A stretch of DNA of 64,000 bases from Candidatus Yonathbacteria bacterium RIFCSPHIGHO2_02_FULL_44_14 (GTDB taxonomy: Bacteria > Patescibacteriota > Minisyncoccia > Phycocordibacterales > UBA1550): contig MHUT01000011.1 in the NCBI GenBank assembly GCA_001823535.1, positions 9,864 to 73,863 on the forward strand, in the 5' to 3' direction. Position 1 is the first letter of the stretch. Every line of letters begins with the position of its first letter. Both the position numbers and the translations under genes were made by a program. The notes under the pieces are model-generated. The model was given only the letters and a program-made list of their open reading frames with translations. It was not told the origin of the DNA and made no database searches. This document shows, piece after piece, positions 33,848 through 52,773 of this stretch.

Positions 33848-35356
33848 ATGCAACTCTCTAAAAAACAAATCATCTGGGGTAGTATTATTATTGCAATTAT
33901 TATTGCTGGCTATTTTATTGTCAGCAACAAAGAAGGTGCTGTTGTACCAAATACTACAACCATCAAACGCGGCGATGTCATCCAGGAGGTGAGTGTCACG
34001 GGTCGCGTTAAACCCACATCCACCGTTGACCTTGGTTTTGAAAAAAGCGGGCGTGTCGCCGGTGTCTATGTGCGCGTCGGAGAGCATATCAATGCAGGCA
34101 AAACTCTTGCCGAAGTTGAATCCTCGAGCGCCGAGGGAAGTCTTATGGAGGCCGAAGCGCGTCTCTCGGAGCTCAAACGCGGGTCGCGACCAGAAGAGCT
34201 TACTGTCAAAAAAGCCGAGCTCGCAAAATACACTCAAGACCTCGACAACGCATATAGCGGCATCACAGATATTTTTAACGATGCTTTTGCTAAAGCTGAT
34301 GATGCGCTTCACACAAAGACAACTGGGATCTTTTCAGGTTTTAAAACTTCATCGTACAAATACACTTTTTCTATCTGCGACAGCAAGCAAGCCTTAAACA
34401 GCGAGTGGCTCCGCTATACGACCGAGATTGATTTCGATACATGGCGTACGGAAAACACAACACTCTCTATTACTTCTCCTAAAACAGAGCTCAGTGCCGC
34501 CCTTGGTCGCACAGGCAAACACCTTGAGGGAGTGCTCGCATTCCTTGAATCGGTCGGTCGCACACTTTCTCTCGACTGCACCATCACAAACAGCAGTCTT
34601 GATACATATCGCACAAACATCAACACCGCTCGCACAAACATCACTGCTGCCCTATCGAGCGTAAACACCAAACAACAATCAATCGCAGCTCTTGCGCTCA
34701 CTGTCGCAAAAGTTGAGGACGAACTCTCCCTCCTTGAAGCAGGTACTGCGAATGAGGTTGTCACTGCACAGGAAGCGCGAGTTCTTTCTGCACGCGGTGA
34801 ACTTGCAAAATACCGCATTTTTGCGCCAATCTCCGGAGTAATTACCAAAGCTGATATAGAAAACGGTGAAGGTGCTACTGTTGGAAGGACGGTATTTTCA
34901 ATCATTTCTGATACCTCATTCGAAATCGAAGCGTACATTCCAGAGGCGGATATAGCAAAAATAAAAATCAATGACTCTGCGCGAGTTACACTTGATGCTT
35001 ACGGATCGGATGTACTATTTGAAGCGCGCGTAACAATGATTGACCCCGCAGAGACAATTATAGACAATGTTCCCACATATAAAACGACGCTTCATTTCGC
35101 CAAAAATGATCCTCGCATTAAATCCGGGATGACTGCGAATATCGACATCAGCACTTCTTCGCGCACAAATGCTCTTTTTATCCCTGAGCGCTCGATTATC
35201 ACACGAAATGGTGAGAAATTTATCCGCACCGTGACTCCCGACAGCACAACAACCGATGTCCGCGTAACAGTAGGCCTCAAAGGCTCCGATGGGTCAATCG
35301 AAATCCTCTCTGGCGCAACAGAAGGATCCACCATCATCATGGCGCCAAAGGACTAG
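33848..35356 (+). CDS. periplasmic adaptor / membrane fusion protein (HlyD/MacA family)
   Basis: N-terminal TM, biotin-lipoyl-like and coiled-coil regions; precedes MacB-type ABC pair. Confidence 0.7.
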   Translation: MQLSKKQIIWGSIIIAIIIAGYFIVSNKEGAVVPNTTTIKRGDVIQEVSVTGRVKPTSTVDLGFEKSGRVAGVYVRVGEHINAGKTLAEVESSSAEGSLMEAEARLSELKRGSRPEELTVKKAELAKYTQDLDNAYSGITDIFNDAFAKADDALHTKTTGIFSGFKTSSYKYTFSICDSKQALNSEWLRYTTEIDFDTWRTENTTLSITSPKTELSAALGRTGKHLEGVLAFLESVGRTLSLDCTITNSSLDTYRTNINTARTNITAALSSVNTKQQSIAALALTVAKVEDELSLLEAGTANEVVTAQEARVLSARGELAKYRIFAPISGVITKADIENGEGATVGRTVFSIISDTSFEIEAYIPEADIAKIKINDSARVTLDAYGSDVLFEARVTMIDPAETIIDNVPTYKTTLHFAKNDPRIKSGMTANIDISTSSRTNALFIPERSIITRNGEKFIRTVTPDSTTTDVRVTVGLKGSDGSIEILSGATEGSTIIMAPKD

Positions 35357-35410
35357 GGAATGTTGGTCTCGCGCCCGTTATAAATTCAATATTCCAAATT
35401 CTACCCATTT

Positions 35411-36133
35411 ATGCCACTCATTGAAGTCAGGAACCTTACAAAGGTATACGTGAATGACGAAATAGAAACGCCTGTTCTTCATGGTGTTTCATTTGGGATT
35501 GAGCGAGGCGAGTTCGTTGCTATTATGGGTCCATCTGGCTCTGGCAAGTCCACCTTACTCCACGTTCTTGGCTTTCTTGACGGATACACTAACGGCTCGT
35601 ATCGCTTTGAAGACAAAGAAGCAAGTACATACGAGGGTGATGCAATGTCGCATATTCGTAACAAAAAACTTGGTTTTATCTTTCAGTCATTCAACCTTCT
35701 CGCACACGCAAGCGTTTTTGAAAACGTTAAACTCCCACTTTTTTATTCAGACATTCCAGAATCAGAATGGACCAAACTAGTAACCGATGCGATAGAAACT
35801 GTTGGGCTCACGCATCGTACAGATTTTGACGTCACCCGCCTTTCTGGTGGTGAAAAACAGCGTGTTGCTATAGCTCGAGCACTAGTGTGTAGCCCTGAAG
35901 TTATTTTTGCAGATGAACCAACAGGCAATCTGGACTCAAAGTCTGGTGGTGGAGTGATGCAGACTCTCCAGGACCTCAACGAGAAACACGGGCACACAAT
36001 AATACTTATCACTCACGAAACCTACACTGCCGAACACGCGCGACGTATCATCCGCATCAAAGATGGTCTGATCGAAAGCGATACAGAGGTTGTAGCCCGC
36101 CGACACACAACTGCTGGAATGCTCATGAAATAA
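35411..36133 (+). CDS. ABC transporter ATP-binding protein (MacB/LolD family)
   Basis: [12 protein letters not shown] Walker [16 protein letters not shown] signature, Walker B. Confidence 0.9.
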
Positions 36134-36137
36134 CACA

Positions 36138-37373
36138 ATGAAACTTAAACACAGTCTAAAAACTGCATATACAGGACTTGAGCAAAATCGCGCGCGGTCT
36201 TTCCTCACCATACTCGGTATTGTCATTGGTGTTGCCGCAATCATTCTAGTAATGTCACTTGGTCAAGGCGCTCAAGCGCTTATTCTAGACCAGGTAAAAG
36301 GTATGGGCACTCGTACGATTATTGTTGGTGGTGGTCGAGAACCAAAAGGTCCATCCGATGCGGGGCAGATTTTTAATGATTCACTCAAAAAGCGTGACTT
36401 AGATTTTCTTGAACGTCGAGAAAATACCCCAAGCGTAAAATTTGTTATGCCTCTTATTTTTGGAGCAGCAGGTGCCTCCTATCAAAGCGATACTTACAAT
36501 CTCACTATTTTTGGTGCATCCCCTCTTATGGAAAAAATCTTTGACATGCCTTTCAAAACTGGTGGGATGTTTACAGAAGAGGACATCCGCGCGCGAGCTA
36601 AATATGTAATAATTGGCAACAAAGTAAAAACTCAACTTTTTGGCGCTGATGACGCGATTGGACAAGTAATAAAAATGAAGGGTTACAACTTCCGTGTTAT
36701 TGGAGTTCTTACGGAACAAGGACAGAGCGCATTTAACTTTGATGAAGCTGCCATCATTCCCTACACCACTGCCCAGGACTACGTTCTTGGTATTAAATAT
36801 TTTAACAGGTTTGTCATTGAAGCACAGAGTGATGAGCTGGTTAATAGCGCGTCAGATGAGGTTGCGCTTACTCTACGCGAGTCGCACAATATCACTGATC
36901 CGGCTAAAGATGATTTCTTTGTAATAACACAGGTCAGCCTCGCAAATAGCCTTTCTTCTATCACATCGGTCCTTACGATATTTCTTGCCGCCGTTGCCGC
37001 GATATCGCTCATTGTTGGCGGTATCGGTATCATGAATATAATGCTCGTTTCGGTCACCGAGCGCACCAAGGAGATTGGTCTCCGTAAAGCGCTCGGAGCC
37101 ACCTACAAGGACATTCTCACCCAATTCCTCCTTGAAGCCGTCATGCTCACCGGCATGGGCGGTCTCGTCGGAATTCTCTTGGGCGCTTTTCTCTCGTGGG
37201 CGATATCTGCAGGAATCACACAATTTACAAGTATCGCGTGGACATTTAGCTTTCCTGTTTCCGCGGCACTTCTCGGTCTCGGCGTCTCAGGCGCAATAGG
37301 ACTTATTTTTGGGCTCTATCCAGCTCGCACCGCCGCTCGCAAGAGCCCCATCGACGCCCTCCGTTATGAGTAA
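36138..37373 (+). CDS. ABC transporter permease (FtsX/MacB family)
   Basis: N-terminal TM, large periplasmic domain, C-terminal 3-TM FtsX-like region. Confidence 0.8.
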   Translation: MKLKHSLKTAYTGLEQNRARSFLTILGIVIGVAAIILVMSLGQGAQALILDQVKGMGTRTIIVGGGREPKGPSDAGQIFNDSLKKRDLDFLERRENTPSVKFVMPLIFGAAGASYQSDTYNLTIFGASPLMEKIFDMPFKTGGMFTEEDIRARAKYVIIGNKVKTQLFGADDAIGQVIKMKGYNFRVIGVLTEQGQSAFNFDEAAIIPYTTAQDYVLGIKYFNRFVIEAQSDELVNSASDEVALTLRESHNITDPAKDDFFVITQVSLANSLSSITSVLTIFLAAVAAISLIVGGIGIMNIMLVSVTERTKEIGLRKALGATYKDILTQFLLEAVMLTGMGGLVGILLGAFLSWAISAGITQFTSIAWTFSFPVSAALLGLGVSGAIGLIFGLYPARTAARKSPIDALRYE

Positions 37374-37726
37374 TTTTGGAATATAGGACCCATACCGCAG
37401 AAACCGGAAGGTAATACTTTGAATTCGCTCTGCTCATGCAGAAGCGTTGCTGAATCTGGTGATTCAGCATTTGGTGATTTGTCTATATCGCTAATAAATT
37501 TTTTGCGATGAATATAGACCCCTGCGGCAGAGACCGCAGGGTAATACTTGGAACTCGCTTCGCTCATGCAGAAGCGTGGCAGAGACCACGCGGTATTGAC
37601 CTATATTAGCTCCTCGGCTCAGGAACGAAAAAGATTACTTTTCTTTTTGTCTTCGTCCAAGACGCGAACTTGCTAGTTCGTCTACGTCGCTAATAATCCT
37701 TCGTTTATGAGCGATATTTAACTGTA

Positions 37727-38188
37727 TTAGTTGGTGACTTCACTCCACGTTGTGCTTGTTATGTCTCCATCGGTACCTAGAGCAACGACTACCTGTAAAG
37801 TACGTGTACTTGATTTCATTATCCCCTTTGCGGTGACTGTTTTTGCGGTGTCATTACCCGTCACGCTCATTTTTGCACAATCGTTACCGAGACTGCACCC
37901 GTTAGTACTAAAATCTACGGTATAGCAGTCAGTCGTTGCGCAAGTGTAACCCTTGTTACGCGCAATTCGTATTAGTGCATCGCGAGTACCAGACTCCGCA
38001 TAAAAAAGCGCTTTGTTAGATTGTATATTTCCTTGTGATACAAATGATTCTGTCAGAGAAACTGCGGTAATACCCACTGCAACCACGAGCGACATGACAC
38101 CAAGCATAATCACAGTAGGAAGCGTTGCGATACCGCTGGAAGAACATTTGATATACGACTTTTGGCATGCGCCCTTTTTGTTTGGCAT
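37727..38188 (-). CDS. minor pilin-like protein (PilX-like hydrophobic N-terminus)
   Basis: GIATLPTVIMLGVMSLVVAVGITAV N-terminal helix; last gene of pilus operon. Confidence 0.45.
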   Translation of the reverse strand: MPNKKGACQKSYIKCSSSGIATLPTVIMLGVMSLVVAVGITAVSLTESFVSQGNIQSNKALFYAESGTRDALIRIARNKGYTCATTDCYTVDFSTNGCSLGNDCAKMSVTGNDTAKTVTAKGIMKSSTRTLQVVVALGTDGDITSTTWSEVTN

Positions 38189-38214: not shown

Positions 38215-38736
38215 CTACCTAAAAGTAATTGTCGTACGCAGACTATCCGAGTATGACCAATCAGTGCTTAAGGAATTATAGCGCATCGTCATCGCGACTT
38301 GCATAGAAGTCGTTGTGGCATCCAATAAGGAATTATAATTTTCGAGTCGCGTAAAGGTGGGGACTTCAACAAGAACTGAATTACCTGTTGTCGTAGCAAC
38401 TACGCCATTCTCAATACGTCGTAGCGCACCCCCCAACACATCATAAACGACGGGGACTCCAGATACGGTAACACTTAGTGAACTTGAAGGAGTCCCAAGA
38501 GTTGGAGCGGAAACAGCAGAAGCATTTTTTACGTCCTGCTTGATTCGCTCAATTGCAAAGCGAATCGCACTATTCACTTCGCTCCGCGCTTCTGCTTGCC
38601 CTCGCCCCTTTGATAGGGAGATAAATGCATCGGAGATGATTACCATGAGTCCCGAAAGTATGGCAATATAGAGCAGAAGCTCAAGCAAGCTCATTCCGCG
38701 CTGGCATACTTTGTTTTTTGGAGAAAAAATTTTCAT
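38215..38736 (-). CDS. pseudopilin with prepilin-type N-terminal cleavage/methylation motif
   Basis: QRGMSLLELLLYIAILSGL; 4-nt overlap with upstream gene. Confidence 0.7.
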   Translation of the reverse strand: MKIFSPKNKVCQRGMSLLELLLYIAILSGLMVIISDAFISLSKGRGQAEARSEVNSAIRFAIERIKQDVKNASAVSAPTLGTPSSSLSVTVSGVPVVYDVLGGALRRIENGVVATTTGNSVLVEVPTFTRLENYNSLLDATTTSMQVAMTMRYNSLSTDWSYSDSLRTTITFR

Positions 38737-41693
38737 CTAATGGAAATGACGCTTGTTATTATTTGTCCGCTATCAAGCACCGCCTTGAGCTGCCAAGAAC
38801 CTGGCGACATCGTACTCGTGGAGAGATTAAAAAGGTAGTGCTGTCCGCTTGTATCATAGCGGAATTGATTTCCCGTATCTGCCACTGAGGTCGAAAGGGG
38901 TATTTCATCATTCCCAACCACGCTATCACTTATTTTTGCAACATAGAGGTATGCAAAAACCGAAGGTACCGCGTTATTATTCACATCACGCACTCCAAAT
39001 TTCACCGGCAATGTTCTTCCTTGGTTGTACACACCGCTTCCATCAGATTTAATAGGTGAAAGAAAGCCATTTGTTGCGTAGAGAACATTGAATGTACTGG
39101 TAGTAGTAGCGGTGTTGCCTTCATTATCCATCGCGACCAGTTCCAGCATATTTACTCCTGGCTTGACCATGGTTACCTGTTGTCCATTTATAACTGGATT
39201 CTCATTCAAGGTAGCGTTTAGAATTGCAATACCCGAGACATCGGTTGCATAGAATTGCGCCGTAGTGGTTGCGTTGAGGAGGTATTCACCTGAGGGGTAA
39301 ACGACTGAGATTGCGGGTGGGTCGATTTCAGTAAGACTGCTGTCGCTCTGAATAACGCGGTCAACAACACCATCTCCGTTGGTATCAATGCCTACGGTCA
39401 CCCCACGCTCTCCACGGTCAAGCGCATCCCAATCAATAAAATATTCGTGGATTTCACCCGGGGTGGCGGGGATGTTTGTGGCATAAAAAGTCCGTAAAAT
39501 ATCATTCTGTGTGAATTCAACTCGGAAACCGTATGTTCCTATTCCCGTTCCGATTACACGATATGTATACGGATTATGAGGGAAGAATATTACCCCTCCG
39601 TCTGCATCACGGTCATACCGTGAGAAAGGAATTTCTTCTCTGATTACGGAAGTTCCGTCAAAACCTGTAGCTCGCCCAAGTGAATCAATCACCTCAATTT
39701 CAACAGGACTAAACTTCTTGAACTCAATTCGGTTTGCATTTGCAAGCTTCAATTTTTCAATAAGTTGATCATTGTTTGCATAGTCAATCCCTGGGAAATA
39801 TATCGACAAATCGCGCAAAGAATTCGAGATTTGTTTCAGGTAGTTACCCGTCAATACTTTTCCATTGTATCCCCATGTGGCAAGAACGCGTTCAATATCT
39901 TGGCAGCTATATACCAATGTCCCAATCGTTAGCTGTGCATCAGGACATTTCCTGCGATACTTCTCTTGCAGTGTACGAAAACCGTCTTTGATGTTTGCAT
40001 AAATCCCCTGCAAAGCATTTGAGTAGTACTTACTTGTGGGAAAATTCGTCCGGCAATCCCCTGTTTTGGGATAATTTTTAAGAGCACTTCCCAAGCCCTT
40101 GAATCCCTCACTGGTGATTTGCATAATACCAATTCCGCCGTCTTGCGCACTGGAACAAATTTCGTTATCAAGTGTGCCTGCCGACTCGTGTCCTGCAATA
40201 GCAAGCACAAGTTCTTTAGGGTATGAAGCTCCTTGAATAAATCTTTGGAAATTATTTAAACTATCATGTCCGCCACCTCCGCCATAGAGAGAGCTTGAAG
40301 TTGCTGTCGCAGTGTAGTAAGTATCTACTGCCTGTAGGATTACGGGGGTACGGGCTTCCTTTGTTTGATATGGCATGGTGGTTGCTTTTGCATCAAGAGT
40401 TGATTGAGCATTTGCGTCATACGGAAGATATATTGTTCCCGTGCTTATCTCTCTAGCCACCATCCAGCCAATGGCACCATCAGTCACATCAACCACTCCG
40501 TACCATTGGTACCCGTCGAGTTCGATAGTTTGCCCCGTAACAGTATCAGTCGTCGTTGCGACTTTGAGCACCCAGTCGGCGGGGACAGTTTTTATAACAT
40601 CACTTGCCGGTTTGTCAGTTTGTGTTCCCGTTATTTTTGTTCCCGCTGTTTGACGGAGTTTAAAAACTCCGCCGGAATGATTAACTTGAGAAAAAAATTG
40701 AGGTAGTTGGGGACCCCCGATTGCTATTTTACTCACGGTGTTGGAATATTGGTTTGCCACCCAGACAGAGTTCGTAACATTGTCGAAGGCGATGCCATTA
40801 GGATAATTCCCGACTGAATAATCAACCTTTGTACCGGTAAATATGTCTATCTTGCTTACGGATCTGGAAAAATAGTTTGTCACCCAGATAGAGTTCGTAA
40901 CATTATCGAAGGCGATGCCAATAGGATATGCTCCGACTGAATAATCAACCTTTGTACCGGTAAATATGTCTATCTTGCTTACGGTACCAGAGCCAACATT
41001 TGCAACCCAGACAGAATTAGTAACGCTATCGAAAGCAAGGCGATATGGCGACAGCCCAACAGGATAATCAACTCTTGAGCCACTAAATATGTCTACCTTG
41101 CTTACGGTACCAGAGCCAACATTTGCAACCCAGACAGAGTTCGTAACATTATCGAAGGCGACACCAGCAGAATCAACCCCGACTGAATAATCAACCTTTG
41201 TACCGGTAAATATGTCTATCTTGCTTACGGTATAATTGTTTGCCACCCAGACAGAGTTCGTAACATTATCGAAGGCGACACCAGCAGGATACATTCCTAT
41301 AGGATAATCAACTCTCGCACCGGTAACAATATTTATTTTACTTACGGATCTGGAAAAATAGTTTGTCACCCAGATAGAGTTCGTAACACTGTCGAAGGCG
41401 ATGCCATTATTCGACACCCCAACTGAATAATCAACCTTTGTACCGGTAAATATGTCTATCTTGCTTACGGTATAGGACTGACTCCCAACCCAAATAGAGT
41501 TGGTAATATTGTCAAAGGCAACCACTGTTGGATACGATCCGACAGCATAATCAGTTCTGGTGCCTGCTGGCGAATTCACAACTTGCGCGAAGGCAATATC
41601 GACAAAAGAAAAAAACGAAAAAAGGAGAATTATAGAACCTATGGTCCTTATTAAAGAAACTTTAGAAAATCGTGATATCAAATTTTGGGACAT
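38733..41693 (-). CDS. secreted fusion protein: 7-8 YVTN-type beta-propeller repeats + SLT lytic transglycosylase domain + C-terminal Ig-like domains
   Basis: Signal peptide; ~40-aa repeats VDYSVG.YP.GIAFDNVTNSVWVAN...VSKIDIFTG x8; SLT motif IAGHESAG...SAQDGGIGIMQIT. Confidence 0.7.
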   Translation of the reverse strand: MSQNLISRFSKVSLIRTIGSIILLFSFFSFVDIAFAQVVNSPAGTRTDYAVGSYPTVVAFDNITNSIWVGSQSYTVSKIDIFTGTKVDYSVGVSNNGIAFDSVTNSIWVTNYFSRSVSKINIVTGARVDYPIGMYPAGVAFDNVTNSVWVANNYTVSKIDIFTGTKVDYSVGVDSAGVAFDNVTNSVWVANVGSGTVSKVDIFSGSRVDYPVGLSPYRLAFDSVTNSVWVANVGSGTVSKIDIFTGTKVDYSVGAYPIGIAFDNVTNSIWVTNYFSRSVSKIDIFTGTKVDYSVGNYPNGIAFDNVTNSVWVANQYSNTVSKIAIGGPQLPQFFSQVNHSGGVFKLRQTAGTKITGTQTDKPASDVIKTVPADWVLKVATTTDTVTGQTIELDGYQWYGVVDVTDGAIGWMVAREISTGTIYLPYDANAQSTLDAKATTMPYQTKEARTPVILQAVDTYYTATATSSSLYGGGGGHDSLNNFQRFIQGASYPKELVLAIAGHESAGTLDNEICSSAQDGGIGIMQITSEGFKGLGSALKNYPKTGDCRTNFPTSKYYSNALQGIYANIKDGFRTLQEKYRRKCPDAQLTIGTLVYSCQDIERVLATWGYNGKVLTGNYLKQISNSLRDLSIYFPGIDYANNDQLIEKLKLANANRIEFKKFSPVEIEVIDSLGRATGFDGTSVIREEIPFSRYDRDADGGVIFFPHNPYTYRVIGTGIGTYGFRVEFTQNDILRTFYATNIPATPGEIHEYFIDWDALDRGERGVTVGIDTNGDGVVDRVIQSDSSLTEIDPPAISVVYPSGEYLLNATTTAQFYATDVSGIAILNATLNENPVINGQQVTMVKPGVNMLELVAMDNEGNTATTTSTFNVLYATNGFLSPIKSDGSGVYNQGRTLPVKFGVRDVNNNAVPSVFAYLYVAKISDSVVGNDEIPLSTSVADTGNQFRYDTSGQHYLFNLSTSTMSPGSWQLKAVLDSGQIITSVISIR

Positions 41694-41741: not shown

Positions 41742-43388
41742 CTATGATGCATAGTTTACCACAATGCGAGTAATGGTGGGGGTAACTGTTCCTGGTGTTG
41801 TGCAGTCTCCCGAGCAAAGTTTTACCTTATACCGATAGTATCTTTGATTATTATGATACGTTGATGAGCATTTCAGCTCAACTGGTTGATCTTGATTTAC
41901 GGTATCATACCAAAAAACACTACCGCAACTCACTCCGTCTGAACCGATATAACTCCATGATCCTAAATCATTACAAGCTGGGGCATTTGTTTTTCCATTC
42001 GCGCAATCTGATGTAGCAAACTGAAATTTAACCTTTGTTCCAACGGGAAACGTTCCTTTCCACATTATTGAATTATATCCTCCACCGTCACCCGCTGTTG
42101 CCCAAAACGAATTCGAATCAAAAACGGAAGATGTAACAATTCCTGATGTATTTTTGTTTGCGACACCGCCCACAGCTGTGCCGCAGATCTTATTAGAATA
42201 CGCTGTTGAACCGCCTACGTGGGCATTCGTTAATAAAGAAGAAATGGAGGCAATGATTGCATCATACCCGGTGCAATTGTTTGCTTGATACGCTACCGAA
42301 ACAGTGCCCCCTGACGGTACGGACATACAGGCATTATTGGCGCTTGAGTAATTCGATTGATCATTTCTTTCTGCATGTGCGTTCGTCAGTCCAGACAATT
42401 TCAATACAACCGCAGAAGGTGCGGTGCATGAGTTACCAAGACCAGTAACTCCTGAACAGCAGATGACATTCCCTGTATAGTTTCCGTTTGATTGGCTGGG
42501 CAATTCCGCATGAGCATTTGTTGCGCCCGACATTCTGAGTATCGTCGTTCCACCACTGCTTGTACAAGCAGCCGCAGTGCTAACTGAGCAGGAAAGTGTT
42601 CCTGATGGTGGCGCTGCAACAGTAGCCTTGTAGGTGGCAATTAGGTCAATTGAGTCATTCGCCCCACTCAATGTGCCGGTAGCGTTATAGGTGCCGATAC
42701 TAGAAACAATCTGATACTCAGTAAAGATTGTCATATTGGAAGAAGCCGCAGAACCACTAGTACCCGCGCTAGGTAATGCAGTAAAGATTCCACCTGCGGT
42801 AAATGTAGTTGTGGGAGGGGCTTCACTGGTAAAAGACCCAAAGAGCAATTCATCTGCCTGCGCAGTCGAGGCAGTGGCAGTGGAATCAAGGGCAGTAGTA
42901 AGACTATATGTTTTTGCTGTCTGATCGAGGGCACTAGCAGTCAATAACCCAGAAAATTCAGTTGCACTCATGGCACTCGCATTAAGACTTGTGTGTGTAA
43001 CGGTAATTGTATCCCCGCTCACTAGCGCGGTAGTAATAGGTGCTGAACAAATAGAGCCTTGTTTCGAGTTATTGTAATTATACTCAACATCAGTGGTATA
43101 AGTGTTCCCTTTTGAATCAGAACATACAGGAATAAGCGGTGGAGGATTAGCCGAACTGTAGTCCGAAGCAATGCCAATGATTACCGTATTGCCGGAAGCG
43201 ACCCCTCCGGCTGGTACAGTAATCTGTAATTGCGTATGTGCGCCTTTTTGAGCTACGGCACCGATATTTTGAACTAAAGCGATCGCTGCATGGGCTTGGT
43301 TAACATCAATACAAAAAACAAATAAAATTGTTAGAATTGATCCTCGAAGGATTCTTTTACTTAAAAATTTAGTTGCAAAAAGACTCAT
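41742..43388 (-). CDS. secreted Cys/Thr/Ser-rich protein with three SG.TNAHAE repeats (possible pilus-associated adhesin)
   Basis: Signal peptide; low-complexity T/S/A/G-rich; no family recognised. Confidence 0.45.
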   Translation of the reverse strand: MSLFATKFLSKRILRGSILTILFVFCIDVNQAHAAIALVQNIGAVAQKGAHTQLQITVPAGGVASGNTVIIGIASDYSSANPPPLIPVCSDSKGNTYTTDVEYNYNNSKQGSICSAPITTALVSGDTITVTHTSLNASAMSATEFSGLLTASALDQTAKTYSLTTALDSTATASTAQADELLFGSFTSEAPPTTTFTAGGIFTALPSAGTSGSAASSNMTIFTEYQIVSSIGTYNATGTLSGANDSIDLIATYKATVAAPPSGTLSCSVSTAAACTSSGGTTILRMSGATNAHAELPSQSNGNYTGNVICCSGVTGLGNSCTAPSAVVLKLSGLTNAHAERNDQSNYSSANNACMSVPSGGTVSVAYQANNCTGYDAIIASISSLLTNAHVGGSTAYSNKICGTAVGGVANKNTSGIVTSSVFDSNSFWATAGDGGGYNSIMWKGTFPVGTKVKFQFATSDCANGKTNAPACNDLGSWSYIGSDGVSCGSVFWYDTVNQDQPVELKCSSTYHNNQRYYRYKVKLCSGDCTTPGTVTPTITRIVVNYAS

Positions 43389-43459: not shown

Positions 43460-44374
43460 TTAATAAGCACTATATTTACACCAACTTCCTTCTTTTATAA
43501 CGATACCATTTGATGTCGCTGTCTCTGGCTTAAATCTCATCTGGAGTGTCCCAGCGTTTGCGCCATTACTCCAAAAACCAGAAAATCGAGCACTGTTGTT
43601 TGTCGTAGCAACTGATGCTGTGGTAACAGCACCGGTATCATCACCTACAATGGTTGTTCCTCCAACCGTCGCAGTGGTAATACCAGAAACCATTTGCGCG
43701 CTGGTGATGAGCGGTGACGATGGTCCAGTCCATCCAACACCGAGTCCTCTGGTGGTAGCACTAGCATCATATAGGATATAACATTCAATATCGTACCGTG
43801 TATTTGCACTAATCGCCCAAGAAAGACCTGTTATGTTCTGATAGGCAGTCGAGGCTGTGCTCCCGACATCGGCAGTAGTAACCACATAGGTCGCGCCACC
43901 TCCTGCGGAAGTCTGATCAGTCCCACAAGAAAAAAGGTTTGTGGTACTGTCGTAAAGAAGCTTTGCATTTGTGCCAGAACAGCTCGACGGTAATGAGCGA
44001 GCCGTGTATGCCGAAGTAGAGTCCCCAACCAACACCGCATCAGAGACAGAAGCAGTGAGACCGGTTCCTCCTTGCGCAACCGTAACGGCACTATTGCTTG
44101 TCAAAACTGACGCAGCTGCGTCAGGAAAGGTAAATGTTCTTTCTGTTGTAGGTCCAGTCACAGAAAAGAACGCTGAACCAGTACCACCATTTGCAACAGG
44201 AAGAATACCTGTCACTTGTGCTGTCAAATCAACAAGGACATCTCCAACCTCTGACCATGTGTGTCCGGGGTTTGGCGCAACCGCATTAACAACCGTGATT
44301 ACAGAAAATGCAACACCAAGGAGAAGCAGGGCTGTTAATGTTTTGTTTGGTGTAAATTTGGGGAATTTTTTCAT
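43460..44374 (-). CDS. secreted hypothetical protein
   Basis: Signal peptide MKKFPKF...LLLLGVAFSVITVVNA; T/S/A-rich. Confidence 0.45.
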   Translation of the reverse strand: MKKFPKFTPNKTLTALLLLGVAFSVITVVNAVAPNPGHTWSEVGDVLVDLTAQVTGILPVANGGTGSAFFSVTGPTTERTFTFPDAAASVLTSNSAVTVAQGGTGLTASVSDAVLVGDSTSAYTARSLPSSCSGTNAKLLYDSTTNLFSCGTDQTSAGGGATYVVTTADVGSTASTAYQNITGLSWAISANTRYDIECYILYDASATTRGLGVGWTGPSSPLITSAQMVSGITTATVGGTTIVGDDTGAVTTASVATTNNSARFSGFWSNGANAGTLQMRFKPETATSNGIVIKEGSWCKYSAY

Positions 44375-44444: not shown

Positions 44445-45107
44445 TTATATCAACTTGAGCGTGCCTGTTGAAGTAGATACTGTGGCATCAATGGTATCGT
44501 AGGTTGTCGTACCGCACGATTGAACCGAATCCCCCGACAAACCATTCCCCACCCATCCCGACTGACTGCACACCATATTTCTCCATCGGAAAAAATATTC
44601 GGAAATTGCAACGGGGTCGGCGTTCGGCCATGAGACGGTTACGGTCGCTTTTTGAGTTGAAGGATCATCGATGTAATCTGTGGCGAGCGGTGTGCAGGTG
44701 GTACTACTTGCAATGGAACGGGTTGAATCACTACATCGATTCACATTTTCTATAATTACATAGAGTGTGTATGTTACACCGTTAAGAACAACCGTTTGGC
44801 TCCCCGTTCCCAATGTCCATTTCCCCACAGGCACAGTCGAAGTGGCGTAGTACTGCGACCCCTTTGTAAGACCGTAAATATTCTGCCACTTTTCTTCAGT
44901 AGTTCCGCGCACCGCTTCAAGCCCTTCGTTTGCAAGACCAAGCGCCACATCGCGCTCGCTCGACACTTTGTTGCTTTGCAAACTCACAAACACTGCCTCA
45001 CTTCCCGTAGATAGGATAACGGCAAGCAGAGCGATCACAATAAGAAGCTCAAGAAGGAGGGACCCGCGGTTGTACTTTAGGATATTAAATTTTAGATTGT
45101 GTCTCAT
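44445..45107 (-). CDS. pseudopilin (prepilin N-terminal motif)
   Basis: NRGSLLLELLIVIALLAVIL. Confidence 0.7.
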   Translation of the reverse strand: MRHNLKFNILKYNRGSLLLELLIVIALLAVILSTGSEAVFVSLQSNKVSSERDVALGLANEGLEAVRGTTEEKWQNIYGLTKGSQYYATSTVPVGKWTLGTGSQTVVLNGVTYTLYVIIENVNRCSDSTRSIASSTTCTPLATDYIDDPSTQKATVTVSWPNADPVAISEYFFRWRNMVCSQSGWVGNGLSGDSVQSCGTTTYDTIDATVSTSTGTLKLI

Positions 45108-45109
45108 GT

Positions 45110-45556
45110 TTAATATATTGTTCCGATGCTTGAGATTGTTGTTGTTGCGGTTGCTCCCTCTTGAGTGATACTTGTCGTAGTTGCCGCAGGTATGGTGCCA
45201 GAAATTTTATTGAAGATGACGTCTTTGTATCCTGATGCAGGGTCAGAAAATCTGATGCCGGACGATAAGGTGGTGGTGGCCGTAGTGGTAGAGTTTGTGC
45301 CGTCTGTTGAAAATGTTATGTAATAATCTCCGCTGGTATTTTTTACAAAACGCACGCCCCATTTATATCCGCTCTCGCCTATCATTGATTTCGCACGCAT
45401 TTGTTGCAAATCGCTCACAATCATTTTTGAAGCAGATTGAATTTCCATATTTTTGACAACACCACGATAGAACCCAGATCCGGTAACTGCGAGCACTGCC
45501 ATGATTGCTATCACGATGAGGAGCTCTAAAAGCGAAAATCCGCGCGAAGTATGCAT
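45110..45556 (-). CDS. pseudopilin (GspH/FimT-like)
   Basis: SRGFSLLELLIVIAIMAVLAV. Confidence 0.7.
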   Translation of the reverse strand: MHTSRGFSLLELLIVIAIMAVLAVTGSGFYRGVVKNMEIQSASKMIVSDLQQMRAKSMIGESGYKWGVRFVKNTSGDYYITFSTDGTNSTTTATTTLSSGIRFSDPASGYKDVIFNKISGTIPAATTTSITQEGATATTTISSIGTIY

Positions 45557-45559
45557 ATT

Positions 45560-46774
45560 TTAAGTAAAATGACCTACTAATTGATAAATCGGCAGAATAA
45601 TAGAGAATGCGATAGATCCGACAAGGAGTCCCATAATAAGAAGCAGTGCCGGTTCGAGGATAGCGGTTAAGTCTTTGAGCTTGTTATCAACATCTTCCTC
45701 GTAAAAATCAGAGAAAGTGACTAGAATTTCTGACAACGAACCCGTGCGCTCCCCCACTGTTACCAAACTTAAAAGTAAGCGCGGGAAGAGTTTCGGAAAT
45801 TTTGCAAGAGCGTCAGAAATAGAGAGGCCGTTTTTAATGTCTTCAATCACAGCAGTAATTGCCATTTCATACTTTTGATTACCAATAGATTGAGCGGCAG
45901 ATTCAAGCGATGAGACCGCGGAAAGCCCGCCTGCCATCAAATTTCCTAAAGTACGAGAAAATCGAACAAGGGCAACTTTTCTTACGAGATCGTCCGCTAC
46001 GGGGATCCGTGAAATGATCAAGAAAAAAAACTTCTTCCCCATGCGAGTCGTACGAAAATAAAGAAAAAACCAGATAACAAAAACAAGTGCGGCAGCATCA
46101 AGCATGAAGCTGTAGGTAAGCATACTGGAAAGTCCAAGAAAAAACTTGGTAACCCACGGGAGGTCCACACCGCTCGATGCAAATGCCTTGGTGAGACGCG
46201 GGAGCACAAAAATAAGTAAAAGTGACACGACCCCAACAGAAGCGATGAGAAGAATGACGGGGTAAGTCAATGCAGATTTGACCTTTGCACGAAGCGCATA
46301 TTCCTTTGAAAGATACTGCGAGAGCTCGGCAAGAGTGCGGTCCAGCTGCCCAGATGCCTCTCCGGCACGGAGCATTCCAAGAAAAACAGGGGGGAATGAA
46401 TTTGCATAATTTCCAAAACCTAATGAAAGGGGTTGGCCATTTTTTACCAATGCTTGAACCTCCTGAAGGGTGTTCTTCATAATCTTTTTTTCAGTATCGG
46501 CAATTAAAATATCAAGCGCTTCTACGATAGAGAGGCCCGCCTTTATGGTCGCTGAGAGGTTGCGCGTCAAAAACAAAATATCAACCGGAGTAATTTTTTC
46601 AAAAAGCGAAAATGAAAGATCAAGCACGCCCTTGCTGGCGCGGAGAGCCTCCACAGAGATGGGGTTTAAATCGCGACGAAGCAAGTAGTCGACAACTTCT
46701 TCGCGAGTACTTGCTTCGTACTCCCCTCGCACAATTGCCCCGTCGCGATTATACCCTTCATAAATAAAAATCAT
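45560..46774 (-). CDS. pilC: type IV pilus / T2SS platform protein PilC/GspF
   Basis: Two T2SF domains, 3 TM segments, ~400 aa; start trimmed to ATG 46774 (MIFIYEGY). Confidence 0.85.
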   Translation of the reverse strand: MIFIYEGYNRDGAIVRGEYEASTREEVVDYLLRRDLNPISVEALRASKGVLDLSFSLFEKITPVDILFLTRNLSATIKAGLSIVEALDILIADTEKKIMKNTLQEVQALVKNGQPLSLGFGNYANSFPPVFLGMLRAGEASGQLDRTLAELSQYLSKEYALRAKVKSALTYPVILLIASVGVVSLLLIFVLPRLTKAFASSGVDLPWVTKFFLGLSSMLTYSFMLDAAALVFVIWFFLYFRTTRMGKKFFFLIISRIPVADDLVRKVALVRFSRTLGNLMAGGLSAVSSLESAAQSIGNQKYEMAITAVIEDIKNGLSISDALAKFPKLFPRLLLSLVTVGERTGSLSEILVTFSDFYEEDVDNKLKDLTAILEPALLLIMGLLVGSIAFSIILPIYQLVGHFT

Positions 46775-46783
46775 AATGAAAAG

Positions 46784-47248
46784 ACAATTAACATTTGACA
46801 ATTAACATTTGACGGGGATTTTATAATCATTTTATTGGTGATTTTAACAAACTCTTACGAAAGGCTGTGAGTTGATTTGCGAGAACCTCCGCTCCACTCA
46901 AACAATCCTTATGTTCCGTAATTGTAAAGTACTCACTATCTAACGCAATGTCGCAACATGCAACAACCTCATTAAGAGAAGTATGCGACATATTTAGAAA
47001 ATGTGCAAAGTCCTTATCTGTCATACGGTCCGACCCCTCGGCGATATTAAGAATGATGGAATCAAGCGCTCGAGATATTTGAGCGAGCAACGAAAACTGC
47101 TCCGTGTATGGAAACTTTTTCTTTGTTAATATTTTTACATTATGCACAAAAATACGAGCATCGCCATACACGGGAAATTGCCTAAATCTAAATTTTTTGT
47201 TCTGTGTTTGCATCTTAGTCAAATGTCACTGGTCAATTGTCAAATGTT
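46784..47248. mobile_element. ~465-bp cassette bounded by imperfect ~30-bp inverted repeats, carrying a four-helix-bundle gene, inserted between pilB and pilC
   Basis: Left end acaattaacatttg x2 + ac (46784-46813); right end 47218-47248 gtcaaatgtcactggtcaattgtcaaatgtt, whose reverse complement shares aacatttgacaatt and acatttgac. Confidence 0.5.
46827..47213 (-). CDS. four-helix-bundle protein (23S rRNA intervening-sequence protein family, PF05635/TIGR02436)
   Basis: FSLLAQISRALDSIILNIAEGSDRMTDKDFAHFLNMSHTSLNEVVACCDIALDSEY matches the family pattern (...RA..SI..NIAEG..R....DF..FL..A.GSL.E). Confidence 0.7.
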   Translation of the reverse strand: MQTQNKKFRFRQFPVYGDARIFVHNVKILTKKKFPYTEQFSLLAQISRALDSIILNIAEGSDRMTDKDFAHFLNMSHTSLNEVVACCDIALDSEYFTITEHKDCLSGAEVLANQLTAFRKSLLKSPIK

Positions 47249-47256
47249 CCCCAATT

Positions 47257-48972
47257 CTACTCGTTCACTACACGGAGGATTTCTTCGATTGTGGTAACGC
47301 CACGCTCGACCTTATCCAAGCCATCCTGGAACATCGTGGTCATGCCGTCTTCGATGGCTTTTTTGCGAACTTCGCCTACTGTTGCCTCGCGCAGAATGAG
47401 CTCGCGAATAGCGTCTGTAATACGGAAAAATTCATAAATGCCAATTTGTCCTTGAAACCCAGAGTTACCACAGACTCTGCACCCACGACCGCGATAGAGA
47501 GTGCTGGAGATAGCGCCCGTTGTGTGCCCCGAGAGCTCCATTTGTGCCTTAATGAGGCGTATAATTTCGGGGCTGGCGGGATATGATTCGGTGCATGAGG
47601 CACATATACGGCGCACAAGGCGTTGTGCAATAACAAGATTCACTGTCGAAGAAAGAAGGAACGCCGGCGCACCCATGTCTAGGAGGCGCGGGAGTGCCGA
47701 GGGAGCATCGTTTGTATGAAGTGACGACAACACGAGATGACCCGTGAGTGCCGCGTGGATGGCAATCTCGACGGTTTCGTTATCGCGGATTTCACCAATC
47801 ATGATAATGTCAGGATTTTGGCGGAGAAGTGCGCGGAGGCCGTTTGCAAAAGTGACCCCTGATTTTATATTCACCTGCGTTTGATTTACGCGCGGAAATT
47901 CATACTCAACGGGATCTTCGATCGTAGTAATGTTGACTGATGGCGTGTTGAGAATTTGAAGTATCGCGTAGAGTGTCGTTGTTTTACCGTGTCCAGTAGG
48001 TCCAGTCACCAGTATCATGCCGTGTGGCTTTTTTATCTCATTAAAAAGAATTGAAACGCCTTCATCAGAAACCCCTAGATCCTTAAGCGTAAGCGGACGC
48101 GCAGCGCCTTTTAGGATACGCATTTCAACCTTCTCTCCACTGAACACCGGCATAATATTCACGCGCACATCAATAGCCCCGCCATCCTCCATGTCAAAAT
48201 GGAAACGGCCGTCTTGGGGCACACGATGCTCGTCAATCTGCATGCCAGCGAGAATTTTTACACGCGCGACGAGGATGGGGTCGATTGCTTTGGGTAGGCT
48301 TACAATCTCTTGCATAATACCGTCAATGCGAAAGCGCACAAGAAGCTCTTTTTCAAGAGGTTCAAAGTGTATATCAGAAGCATTCAGGCTCGCTGCGTGA
48401 TCGATAACGTTATCAAGGATGGTGACAATAGGAACCGCTGTGGCGCTTTTTGCAACGTCTGCTTCACCAGTAATTGCGAGTGATTGTTCAACATTTTCTG
48501 AAATTATCTGATCGAAATTAATGCCAACCTTTTTTTTGTATTGTTTAAGTCCATAACGAAGACTTGGGAGTGTAGTCAGATAAACATCTACCCACATATC
48601 AAGTTTCGCGCGTACATACTCAATGGTGTCGTAGTCAAATGGGTCAAGCATTGCGAGCTTTGCGCGGCCTTGCTCTTTGTCGTATGCAAACAAAACTATG
48701 TTCTTTGATTTTGCGTAAACTTCAGGAATGAGCTCGAGCACATCGGGGCTGATAGCCTCTGCTTCTTTTTTGAGATTTACTATTGGAGCGCCGTAATAAG
48801 GACTGAGAAGCTCAGTAAAATAATCTTCAGGGATCTTCCCCCTGCCAATGAGGACATTTGAGATAGATTGCCCCGAGCGACGGGCCTCTTCTGCGGCAAT
48901 AACAAAATCTTCATCGCTCACCAGTCCCGAGTCGAGTACAATCTCTTTCAATTTCTCTTTTGTGATGTGCAT
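47257..48972 (-). CDS. pilB: type IV pilus assembly ATPase PilB/GspE
   Basis: Walker A GPTGHGKTTTLYA, GspE N-terminal domain, Asp/His boxes, C-terminal tetracysteine (CASC...CRVC). Confidence 0.9.
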   Translation of the reverse strand: MHITKEKLKEIVLDSGLVSDEDFVIAAEEARRSGQSISNVLIGRGKIPEDYFTELLSPYYGAPIVNLKKEAEAISPDVLELIPEVYAKSKNIVLFAYDKEQGRAKLAMLDPFDYDTIEYVRAKLDMWVDVYLTTLPSLRYGLKQYKKKVGINFDQIISENVEQSLAITGEADVAKSATAVPIVTILDNVIDHAASLNASDIHFEPLEKELLVRFRIDGIMQEIVSLPKAIDPILVARVKILAGMQIDEHRVPQDGRFHFDMEDGGAIDVRVNIMPVFSGEKVEMRILKGAARPLTLKDLGVSDEGVSILFNEIKKPHGMILVTGPTGHGKTTTLYAILQILNTPSVNITTIEDPVEYEFPRVNQTQVNIKSGVTFANGLRALLRQNPDIIMIGEIRDNETVEIAIHAALTGHLVLSSLHTNDAPSALPRLLDMGAPAFLLSSTVNLVIAQRLVRRICASCTESYPASPEIIRLIKAQMELSGHTTGAISSTLYRGRGCRVCGNSGFQGQIGIYEFFRITDAIRELILREATVGEVRKKAIEDGMTTMFQDGLDKVERGVTTIEEILRVVNE

Positions 48973-49790: not shown

Positions 49791-50543
49791 CTAGAATAAT
49801 GCACCCGTAAGTGGTAAAAGATTCAAACTGTTACCAGATTCATACTTATCAGTATTGTCGCCGCCATCATTTGCCATTTTAGCGTCATCAACAGTGTAAG
49901 CATTACTTTCAAGCACTGCGTTCATTTCAAAGACGTATGCTGGCTTTCCCGCTCCAACACCCGCAGTAGTACCATTTTGACATCCGTAACGATACACGAG
50001 ATCAGAAGCAGTTGCAGTAGTTCCTATAGTGTTTATTGGGTCTACAGGGAAACTCGAAATTGGAGTTCCTCCCGTCAATGCTTTAAGATTTACGGGGATC
50101 CAGCCAGTGCCATCAACCTTTCCTGCTGCTGCACCCGCAGGAGAACCTGACGTGCTAACCCATGGTGTAAACGCAGAATCCGAACCTGCGGTGAGTGTCC
50201 CACCGAGTGTTGGGGTCACGTTGGCACTGTATTTGATTTTAGGAGCCGCGTTTGACGAGGTAACCCCTGCTGCAGTTGTCGATGTTGTACAAATTGCTCC
50301 AAAATTGTCGAGACTTGGTGTAGAAGATGCGGTAAGCATAATACCAAGCGCAGTCTTAACAGACTTCAAGTCCGAGATACGTTGCGCATCGCGCGCTTTC
50401 TTGAGAGTCTCTGCTGGGTTCAACATGAACACGAGAGCAATAGAAAGGATGGCAATGATTGCGATTACAATCAGGAGCTCAAGGAGAGTGAAGCCGCCCT
50501 CGCGCTTCACATCCATTTTTTTCAAATTAGTAAGTGAGATCAT
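49791..50543 (-). CDS. type IV major pilin (paralog 1)
   Basis: REGGFTLLELLIVIAIIAILS prepilin cleavage/methylation site. Confidence 0.85.
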   Translation of the reverse strand: MISLTNLKKMDVKREGGFTLLELLIVIAIIAILSIALVFMLNPAETLKKARDAQRISDLKSVKTALGIMLTASSTPSLDNFGAICTTSTTAAGVTSSNAAPKIKYSANVTPTLGGTLTAGSDSAFTPWVSTSGSPAGAAAGKVDGTGWIPVNLKALTGGTPISSFPVDPINTIGTTATASDLVYRYGCQNGTTAGVGAGKPAYVFEMNAVLESNAYTVDDAKMANDGGDNTDKYESGNSLNLLPLTGALF

Positions 50544-50570: not shown

Positions 50571-51287
50571 TTAGAAGTCTGTTCCTGCATCAAGAATCTT
50601 GAGGTTTGTACCTACTTCATAGAAGCTTGCATTGTTACCGCCATCAGAAGCACGTTTGTCGTCTGCTCCTGTTGTGTAAGCGGAACTCTCAAGTATAGCA
50701 TTCATCTCAAACGTAAGAGGGGTCGCTGAACATGCGTAACGGTAGAAGTAGCTTGCTGGTGAAATACCAGTAGCATAACCGTCAGTAGTACCTCCATTTC
50801 CGTTCAATGTATTTATAGGATCAACAGGAATATTCGAGATTGGTGAACCGCCAATCAAAGAATCAAAGTTTACAGGGATCCAGCCTGTTCCATCTGTAAG
50901 AGATAGGTTTGCTGCCCCTACACTCACCGCTGCAGCAGCGTATGCAGATGCACCCATGAGACCGGTATGAGTAATTGAAGTTGGTGAAGAATAATAAATC
51001 TTAGTTGGTGTAACTGGGGCAGTTAAACCAGGTGTGAGGAAACAAGGCAAGTTGTTTGTAAGACCCAAATAAGGTGTCGATGTACTCGTCAAATAAAGCC
51101 CGAGTGCTGTCTTCATTGTGCTCAGATCTGAAATACGCTGAGCATCGCGCGATTTACGAAGTGCTTCTGCAGGGTTCAAAACAAGAACAAGTGCGACTGA
51201 TAAAATTGCGATAATCGATATAACAATCAGGAGCTCTAGGAGAGTAAAACCTCCATCGCGTTCCTTTTTAAAATTCATTGAAGTCAT
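50571..51287 (-). CDS. type IV major pilin (paralog 2)
   Basis: RDGGFTLLELLIVISIIAILS; similar to the 49791 gene through the first ~70 aa. Confidence 0.85.
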   Translation of the reverse strand: MTSMNFKKERDGGFTLLELLIVISIIAILSVALVLVLNPAEALRKSRDAQRISDLSTMKTALGLYLTSTSTPYLGLTNNLPCFLTPGLTAPVTPTKIYYSSPTSITHTGLMGASAYAAAAVSVGAANLSLTDGTGWIPVNFDSLIGGSPISNIPVDPINTLNGNGGTTDGYATGISPASYFYRYACSATPLTFEMNAILESSAYTTGADDKRASDGGNNASFYEVGTNLKILDAGTDF

Positions 51288-51840: not shown

Positions 51841-51846
51841 AGGAGA

Positions 51847-52233: not shown

Positions 52234-52238
52234 ATATA

Positions 52239-52640: not shown

Positions 52641-52773
52641 AATGATTTAATTATTTTTTAAATTATACTTACAACTGCAATTTTTATCTCAAGAGCATTA
52701 TATGATTATGCAAGCGTCTTTGCAACTTTCTTTTACCGTTGGTAGCAATTACGTACATGCTCCAAAAACGAAA

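Follow-up and report, generated by a model that had tools for sequence, protein, structure and literature searches.

A probable modular cell-wall enzyme encoded in a type IV pilus operon

We analyzed a window of 64,000 nucleotides from Candidatus Yonathbacteria bacterium RIFCSPHIGHO2_02_FULL_44_14 (Patescibacteriota; contig MHUT01000011.1, positions 9,864 to 73,863 of the forward strand) and focus here on a gene at window positions 38733-41693, which encodes a secreted multidomain protein of 986 amino acids (aa) within a type IV pilus operon. The product is very probably a Sec-exported, modular cell-wall enzyme of the Paceibacterota that consists of seven domains or parts, is co-transcribed and translationally coupled with minor pilins, and uses Glu503 as the acid catalyst of a strongly divergent SLT/GH23-type, lysozyme-like domain. 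With regard to its role, we favor, at a probability of roughly 0.45, a pilus-associated, outward-directed wall-degrading adhesin-enzyme over a self-directed opening of the producer's own wall.

The open reading frame comprises 986 codons, starts with ATG and lies on the minus strand, as do all features of the window described below unless stated otherwise. It is supported by the list of open reading frames, by its translation and by full-length homologues in Patescibacteria, which share 54-92% identity and whose names include Candidatus Paceibacterota, Minisyncoccia, Azambacteria and Nomurabacteria. An earlier sequence-only reading of the window had recognized this gene with the right length and coordinates and had ascribed a signal peptide to its product; both statements hold, with the strand corrected to minus. 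The N-terminus, MSQNLISRFSKVSLIRTIGSIILLFSFFSFVDIAFA followed by QV, reads as a basic n-region, a hydrophobic core and a c-region with an AxA cleavage motif, and a Sec-type signal peptide is accordingly predicted for aa 1-36 (positions 41586-41693) with cleavage between AFA and Q. Behind it, the protein is ordered as a propeller, an SH3b-like domain, an SLT-like domain and three beta domains. Scans of the protein against Pfam, NCBIfam and PHROGs returned SLT and YVTN below threshold and no PHROG match, and no PilY1 or pilin family matched in the Pfam and NCBIfam scans. A pilin-like (class III) signal peptide was also considered and rejected, because the protein lacks the G-F-T-L-x-E motif that its neighboring genes have.

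The central domain is a strongly diverged relative of SLT enzymes

The putative catalytic domain spans aa 425-657 (positions 39723-40421). Its motifs are E503-S504, G522-I-M-Q525, N567-I-K-D570-G and Y609-N610-G611, the last of which is preceded by W-G. The stretch IAGHESAG corresponds to aa 498-505 and GGIGIMQIT to aa 519-527; the codons for HES were verified at 40182-40190, with the predicted catalytic Glu503 at 40185-40187. With the Pfam profile PF01464 (SLT), the whole protein reached 15.9 bits and the isolated domain 18.9 bits; the gathering cutoff is 21.3 bits.

An alignment of 15 sequences covering aa 425-657 was used for an exhaustive hidden Markov model search of representatives. The resulting catalytic family comprises 297 cluster representatives at E<=1e-3, 260 of them at E<=1e-10, and has so far been seen only in Patescibacteria. 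Motif conservation was computed over 158 family proteins. Glu503 is kept in 157/157 aligned family domains, and G522, Q525 and D570 are found in all domains that have a residue at the respective column. D518 is nearly invariant, and Y609, N610 and G611 are conserved to about 90-95%. SLT was detected in 13 of the 15 close homologues and is the sole recurrent Pfam family for this domain, and it was still found in 6/66 divergent members (best E=1.4e-7), most relatives being sub-threshold.

The comparison between profiles used 115 bona fide PF01464 proteins, which are related to EtgA, the transglycosylase of a type III secretion system (T3SS). Using hhalign, the profile of the 158 family proteins aligned to this set with a probability of 91.6% (E=8.2e-7) over 73 columns that cover the ES, G[IL]MQI and NI..G..L motifs. 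As controls, thirty column-shuffled SLT alignments and one reversed alignment gave probabilities of at most 1.0% and E>=0.055. Thus, although the direct PF01464 scan stayed below threshold, the profile alignment, the matches in close homologues and the conserved Glu503 support the SLT-type domain proposed in the sequence-only reading. These sequence comparisons place the domain among the homologues of SLT/GH23 enzymes, as a subfamily of its own that has diverged strongly and has long insertions. The domain is almost certainly active, be it as a transglycosylase or as a hydrolytic muramidase, and the nearly invariant D518 together with the invariant D570 would leave room for a goose-lysozyme-like hydrolytic mechanism.

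Sequence searches of the PDB with the middle region alone and with a 15-sequence profile gave nothing significant; EtgA appeared at E=0.61, and matches to MANF were spurious. A word-index homologue search with the middle domain alone returned no matches though close homologues exist, which is a limitation of the index.

Two structure models were computed. The first, an AlphaFold model of aa 328-800 based on 18 sequences, had a predicted local distance difference test score (pLDDT) of 70, with the ES/GIMQ core below 50, and gave no Foldseek matches. Two proteins, P0026 and P0027 (proteins and loci used for comparison carry P and L numbers), were dropped from the alignment as not homologous in this part, where a Cys-containing module with faint similarity to Peptidase_C39_2 replaces SLT. 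The second, an AlphaFold2 model of aa 425-660 based on an alignment of 83 sequences, reached a pLDDT of 93.4 and a predicted template modeling score of 0.92. In this model helix 69-79 ends with Glu503, and short strands come next, which is the arrangement of lysozyme and SLT enzymes. A Foldseek search with the second model against the PDB and viral models yielded no match below E=0.1. The best match was weak, namely the GH124 enzyme CtCel124 (E=0.19, template modeling (TM) score 0.41-0.45), followed by a GH46 chitosanase. Further weak matches were to the lytic transglycosylases 5o1j and 9udh, to a phage SLT-domain protein (probability 0.75, TM score 0.49) and to phi29-type wall hydrolase, lysozyme and endolysin entries; the upper part of both lists consists of lysozyme-superfamily enzymes. 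As to the lysozyme-like fold with a catalytic Glu that had been anticipated, the confident model places Glu503 at the helix end, and the similarity of the fold to lysozyme-like enzymes is weak.

Propeller and accessory domains

The N-terminal part of the mature protein (aa 39-327, positions 40713-41579) is predicted to form a seven-bladed YVTN-type beta-propeller, as judged from anchors, a tandem repeat and a profile match. The anchor TNS[IV]WV occurs seven times, at aa 64, 104, 145, 184, 225, 266 and 307, spaced by 39-41 aa. Eight repeats had been counted in the sequence-only reading; eight blades can be dismissed, because there are seven anchors and aa 39-327 has space for seven blades only. 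At the DNA level, positions 40752-41470 form a tandem array with a 123-bp unit, 5.9 copies and 76% matches, and pairwise blade identity is about 58% on average (maximum 78%), far above chance. The propeller is a young repeat that is still tandem at the DNA level. The assignment to the YVTN type had likewise been made earlier. Scored directly, the protein reached 23.2 bits with TIGR02276, under the cutoff of 27.85, and a single-sequence scan matched no Pfam repeat family in this region, but the profile of the protein and its homologues matched the YVTN propeller of a Methanosarcina mazei S-layer protein (1l0q, E=2e-19) and YncE (E=1e-8). Because of these matches, the YVTN assignment stands.

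Blade number varies between relatives. P0001, an orthologue with 92% identity, has six anchors instead of seven, a peptidase fusion (P0028, M23 type) has about three and a lipase fusion (P0020) has at least nine. This variation could be true copy-number instability or a collapse of repeats during metagenome assembly.

Between propeller and catalytic domain lies an SH3b-like beta domain (aa ~340-420, positions 40434-40676), which was delimited by the strands of the first model and by family conservation and which is putatively wall-binding. Neither PF08239 (SH3b) nor any other Pfam family matched this region of the 986-aa protein. Among the family members, SH3_3 was found in 15/66 (best E=1.1e-7) and PG_binding_1 in 7/66. 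In the two members that were checked, SH3_3 lies directly before the catalytic domain, in P0224 at aa 396-446 and in P0210 at aa 187-242, with weaker matches (E=0.0042 and 0.0017). Furthermore, the motif KT.P.DW...DGY.WY.V.D.TD...GWM of this region is conserved family-wide.

The catalytic domain is followed by a beta-sandwich (aa ~660-790, positions 39324-39716), modeled over aa ~655-790 with a pLDDT of about 90 in the first model and kept throughout the family; Foldseek with that model found no fold match for it. At its end (39324-39400, aa ~765-790) a conserved DTNGDGxxD resembles calcium-binding loops. Next comes a small OmpL47-type or Ig-like beta domain (aa 809-867, positions 39093-39269), for which NF047446 scored 21.2 bits, below its cutoff; the same model exceeds the cutoff in the propeller-lipase relatives and gives 27.7 bits in P0011. 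The C-terminus is a PxKF domain (aa 875-984, positions 38742-39071; NF038114, 47.6 bits, E=1.7e-12, cutoff 35) that contains LPVKF and is common to M23-peptidase proteins from the same operon slot. The C-terminal Ig-like domains described from the sequence alone were hence roughly right, and resolve into the sandwich, the weak OmpL47-type domain and the PxKF domain, which is above cutoff.

The gene overlaps that of a pseudopilin in a pilus operon

The stop codon of the gene overlaps the start codon of the next gene by 4 nt (ATGA, positions 38733-38736). This downstream gene encodes a minor pilin or pseudopilin of 173 aa (38215-38736) with N_methyl/TIGR02532 and ComGE-like matches, and it adjoins the hydrolase gene also in L001, L003, L005, L007, L012 and L013. 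The genes of this array are, in order, two tandem major-pilin-like genes upstream of pilB (50571-51287 and 49791-50543), a membrane protein, pilB (T2SSE ATPase), a 23S-rRNA-IVP gene, pilC (T2SSF), an N_methyl pilin and a 220-aa pilin-like protein. Two secreted proteins of 304 and 548 aa, the 986-aa protein, the pseudopilin and a PilX_N-like protein complete the order. The stretch from pilB to pilC occupies 45560-48972, with Pfam E-values of 1.6e-59 for pilC, 3.4e-23 for the 23S-rRNA-IVP gene and 3e-127 for pilB, and the two pilin-like genes of 220 and 148 aa occupy 44445-45556 (N_methyl E=8e-8, GspH/ComGD-like). The PilX_N-like gene (153 aa, 37727-38188), the last of the operon, has a weak PilX_N match and is kept in related loci. 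It is followed by a hairpin at 37520-37541 with a 9-bp stem including 7 GC pairs, the sole strong terminator-like hairpin on the operon strand. All pilus genes share the strand of the 986-aa gene and are separated by short gaps. Both the 4-nt overlap and the location in a pilus operon agree with the sequence-only reading.

Upstream of the gene lie the secreted 548-aa protein (41742-43388) and the secreted 304-aa protein (43460-44374), both with a signal-peptide-like N-terminus and without any family match. The C-terminal ~130 aa of the 548-aa protein are conserved: they share 36-49% identity with a secreted protein of ~420-430 aa in seven loci. In the loci with available gene calls, the gene for this partner is found at L001 13833-15125, L003 8668-9942, L005 12565-13863 and L007 7419-8687, in each case immediately before or one gene after the hydrolase gene; in L012, L013 and L016 it lies no more than a few kb from the hydrolase gene. 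Sequence searches of the PDB with the 548-aa protein and with the C-terminal 191 aa gave nothing significant, an SraP adhesin module appearing at E=0.057. A chaperone, an inhibitor and a tip component are conceivable roles for the conserved partner.

Further genes around the operon were noted. The 23S-rRNA-IVP gene (PF05635, E=3.4e-23) lies at 46827-47222 between pilB and pilC, and a PF05635 homologue directly follows pilC in another Paceibacterota genome (L005 4838-5224), apparently as an odd conserved passenger of the pilus operon. Upstream of the tandem pilins, positions 51460-55266 encode two receiver-domain proteins, a hemerythrin-domain protein and a HAMP-PAS histidine kinase. One of the receiver-domain proteins was scanned and matched Response_reg (E=1.9e-21); response regulators precede the L005 locus as well, and these genes may form a regulatory module for the pilus locus. 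On its other side, the operon converges on HlyD-ABC-MacB/FtsX export genes and a P-type cation ATPase on the plus strand (33848-37373). This convergent order, the ATPase included, is stable in L001, L003 and L005 despite their differing hydrolase slots.

Propellers and enzymes are exchanged at the same position

Comparison of the homologues by BLAST divides the protein into three exchangeable blocks: the propeller, the core of SH3b-like, SLT-like and sandwich domains, and the OmpL47/PxKF tail. The genes of close homologues are likewise located between the pilins and the pseudopilin, beside the convergent MacB/ABC/HlyD cluster. The propeller type at this position differs. L001/L002 hold a protein with a YVTN propeller (P0007), L003/L004 one with an SBBP propeller (P0011), and L007 one with an RCC1 propeller (P0014), whose gene overlaps the same downstream pseudopilin gene, again by 4 nt. 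Overall, pilus synteny is kept in L001/2, L003/4, L007, L012, L013, L016, L021 and L022. The enzyme is exchanged as well. In L005 the matching operon position is taken by P0028, which combines a YVTN propeller with Peptidase_M23 and the same PxKF tail. In L009 and L010 the YVTN propeller (50-56% identity) is fused to LCAT-type lipases beside pilB, pilC and pilins. These lipase fusions (P0025, P0020 and P0030; L009 8001-10865, L010 848-5197 and 11833-15197) have the OmpL47-type domain and no PxKF tail. In a third fusion type (P0027, P0026 and P0024), the YVTN propeller is followed by the Cys-containing, faintly Peptidase_C39_2-like module in place of SLT; the P0027 gene (L006 10001-12877) adjoins cytochrome oxidase genes and lies in no pilus locus.

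In wider relatives of the SLT-like family the N-terminal domain is LamG, a beta-helix or PD40, and the content between pilins and pseudopilin varies among genomes. Of 14 loci examined in species-representative genomes, five (L012, L013, L016, L021 and L022) are linked to pilus genes, and six with adequate flanks are not (L014, L015, L018, L019, L023 and L024). The distant member P0182 (L008) is likewise not pilus-linked. An SLT-like family that is exclusive to pilus loci can be dismissed, as 7/16 informative loci have no pilus genes within 10 kb. Among the members outside pilus loci, that of L018 is a beta-helix variant, and that of L015 (8972-11749) combines LamG, the SLT-like domain and the PxKF tail and lies in a surface-polysaccharide cluster with glycosyltransferases, a flippase and an O-antigen polymerase-like gene.

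Comparison with known systems

The catalytic domain has the same motif order as family-1 lytic transglycosylases of PF01464, such as EtgA and the C-domain of Slt70, that is a helix-terminal Glu-Ser, G-[LI]-M-Q, N-I-x-x-G-x-x-L and, by motif reading, Y-N-G. It differs from them in scoring sub-threshold (18.9 versus 21.3 bits) and in belonging to a family of its own with about 300 clusters. Its motifs are also spaced more widely: about 20 residues separate ES from GIMQ, an insert of ~45-85 residues, exceeding 100 in some members, precedes NIKDG and YNG, and there are extra N-terminal helices.

Diderms are known to have specialized transglycosylases, wall-cutting enzymes whose genes lie in the operon of a filament machine that spans the envelope; EtgA belongs to a T3SS and VirB1 to a type IV secretion system. 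BfpH of the bundle-forming pilus and PilT of the R64 thin pilus are further examples. The group is reportedly reviewed in Koraimann 2003 and Zahrl 2005, both cited by PMC11452946. The window protein shares with EtgA and VirB1 the location in the gene cluster but not the small, single-domain build: they are periplasmic single-domain proteins of ~150-250 aa from diderms, whereas the window protein has 986 aa and six domains, comes from the Candidate Phyla Radiation (CPR) and adds the propeller, the SH3b-like and the PxKF domain, and its slot may hold an M23 peptidase instead.

A second resemblance is to PilY1 of Pseudomonas and PilX2 of the Saccharibacteria strain TM7x. These are likewise large, non-canonical proteins encoded among minor pilin genes and have a seven-bladed propeller. 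PilX2 lacks a PilD signal (PMC11623550) and has an RCC1 propeller, as do orthologues of the window protein. In contrast to both, the propeller of the window protein is N-terminal and of the YVTN type, the signal is a plain Sec signal and the core is a putative enzymatic wall hydrolase.

Further modular hydrolases of peptidoglycan are the streptococcal fratricin CbpD and LytF, which are secreted, carry wall-binding modules and are expressed together with the type IV competence pilus. The wall-binding modules of CbpD are SH3b domains. CbpD and LytF differ from the window protein in being CHAP amidases/endopeptidases encoded outside the pilus operon and in having no propeller, while the window enzyme is an SLT-like glycanase. 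The literature on them offers both roles that matter here, the killing of neighbors for DNA and assistance to the pilus on its way through the wall (PMC13192262). Finally, the YVTN propellers of 1l0q and YncE have the same ~41-aa repeat signature and seven blades, whereas the blades of the window protein are unusually alike, as seen in the 123-bp DNA repeat, their number varies in close relatives and they are fused to a hydrolase. Judged by their defining features, the window protein belongs neither to the family-1 or dedicated transglycosylases nor to the PilY1/PilX2 proteins or the competence-linked hydrolases, being sub-threshold for PF01464, neither small nor single-domain, and devoid of PilY1 or pilin homology. 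In the literature searched we found no description of this architecture or of a swappable slot.

Possible roles of the protein

In the outward-directed reading, the protein would be produced along with the pilus tip and the set of minor pilins and would act extracellularly beside the pilus. The exchangeable propeller would bind a surface ligand, the SH3b-like domain would hold peptidoglycan, and the SLT-like domain would cleave the glycan strand between N-acetylmuramic acid and N-acetylglucosamine (MurNAc-GlcNAc). The wall of a partner or host contacted by the pilus would thereby be weakened, which may serve attachment, nutrient release or DNA release. The SLT enzyme would belong to a group of interchangeable "warheads" (SLT, M23 peptidase, LCAT-type lipase) mounted on propellers in Paceibacterota pilus loci. 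We rate this role somewhat higher than a self-directed one because a propeller of ~290 aa that is swapped between orthologues fits target recognition and not a housekeeping space-maker, and because the same propeller bears lipases in pilus loci, where a lipase cannot open the own wall. The propeller-M23 peptidase-PxKF protein at the matching position of L005 also speaks for it. Two precedents argue in the same direction. In Saccharibacteria, PilX2, a propeller-bearing pilus protein that is not processed by PilD, is required for host binding (PMC11623550), and lytic transglycosylases and phospholipases of Patescibacteria have already been suspected, in general terms, of breaching and harming host envelopes (PMC11665869).

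Several points weigh against an outward-directed enzyme of this kind. The protein has a Sec signal and no pilin N-terminus, and it scores under the curated Pfam and TIGRFAM thresholds. The hhalign alignment ends short of YNG, so that the equivalence of this motif is a motif reading only. About half of the distant family members lie away from recognizable pilus genes, and the enzyme core is not pilus-specific. Moreover, dedicated wall hydrolases that aid a cell's own pili or secretion systems across the wall are well known. LytF promotes the extrusion of the ComGC competence pilus in a monoderm, which makes a self-directed role a serious rival (PMC13192262).

Such a rival would be a space-making autolysin that locally opens the monoderm-type peptidoglycan of the producer for passage of the type IV pilus. 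We regard this as possible, though less likely. Apart from the LytF precedent, it would account for a gene inside the pilus operon that is translationally coupled to a pseudopilin and keeps its synteny in close relatives, and for a slot that another wall hydrolase, the M23 peptidase, can fill; in addition, EtgA, a transglycosylase dedicated to a T3SS, ranks first, without significance, among the PDB sequence matches of the catalytic profile. On the other hand, the dedicated transglycosylases that are known are small and single-domain, whereas the present protein has 986 aa and a large ligand-binding domain that is swapped among orthologues. The lipases fused to the same propeller would have no role in wall opening, and many family members are found outside pilus loci. 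These latter members, for instance the one in the surface-polysaccharide cluster of L015, together with the ~300 family clusters with many different N-terminal domains and the variable content of the stretch between pilins and pseudopilin, would fit a general secreted glycanase for wall remodeling or scavenging (for example in growth, division or the recycling of murein from the environment) that is a bystander in a variable accessory part of the pilus locus. This we consider unlikely, given that the 4-nt overlap with the pseudopilin is kept in L007, that the position has outlasted changes of propeller type and even of enzyme type, and that more distant Paceibacterota again have propeller-hydrolase fusions in their pilus loci.

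The substrate may also be questioned. The lysozyme-like domain could cut a polysaccharide other than peptidoglycan, such as a host glycan, a pseudomurein-like polymer or a beta-glucan, its likeness to SLT then reflecting the ancestry of the fold. The cellulase CtCel124 and the GH46 chitosanase at the top of the structural matches and the divergence of the domain beyond the SLT threshold are consistent with this, and some Paceibacteria attach to methanogenic archaea, which have no murein (PMC10936435, PMC9763046). It is nevertheless improbable in view of a sequence-profile relationship that is specifically to PF01464, of PG_binding_1 and SH3b modules in family members and of a syntenic replacement that is a peptidoglycan endopeptidase. 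Degeneration of the SLT-like domain to a glycan-binding module, which would turn the protein into a catalytically dead adhesin, could be read from the sub-threshold similarity and the large array of binding-type domains; the Glu present in every aligned family domain and the invariant G, Q and D around it are the pattern of an active enzyme and make this very improbable. Taken together, the two functions put forward in the sequence-only reading, opening of the own wall and action on a host wall, stay as the two leading hypotheses, and of these we prefer the outward-directed enzyme.

Implications for patescibacterial pili

A central question about ultrasmall Patescibacteria is how they draw material from their hosts, and type IV pili are known to be essential in the few cultivated species of this group. 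The locus described here provides a specific and testable link between pilus and envelope degradation, with one branch of the family coupled to a pseudopilin in a pilus operon. In addition, the unannotated SLT-like family of about 300 clusters is a clean Pfam-dark enzyme family for annotation. If the enzyme opened the producer's own wall, it would be, to our knowledge, the first known operon-encoded, pilus-dedicated wall hydrolase in a monoderm-like lineage.

Taken by itself, the gene encodes a divergent yet recognizable wall enzyme. The more interesting lead is the surrounding pattern of pilus loci with interchangeable, propeller-tagged envelope hydrolases, which suggests that the pilus region holds an exchangeable envelope-degrading tool. 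Tentatively, we propose that Paceibacterota pilus loci may hold a cassette-like slot for large Sec-exported proteins that combine a propeller with a warhead, where the enzymes would be swapped between an SLT glycanase (here), an M23 endopeptidase (L005) and LCAT-type lipases (L009/L010), and the propellers between the YVTN, RCC1 and SBBP types. If this is the case, the pilus would be a contact-dependent device for attack and feeding, beyond attachment and motility. Envelope-degrading enzymes would be carried to the host surface, functionally like the polymorphic effectors of type VI and type VII secretion systems or the tail lysins of phages, and this would give a concrete molecular answer to the question of how CPR epibionts other than Saccharibacteria breach the envelope of their hosts.

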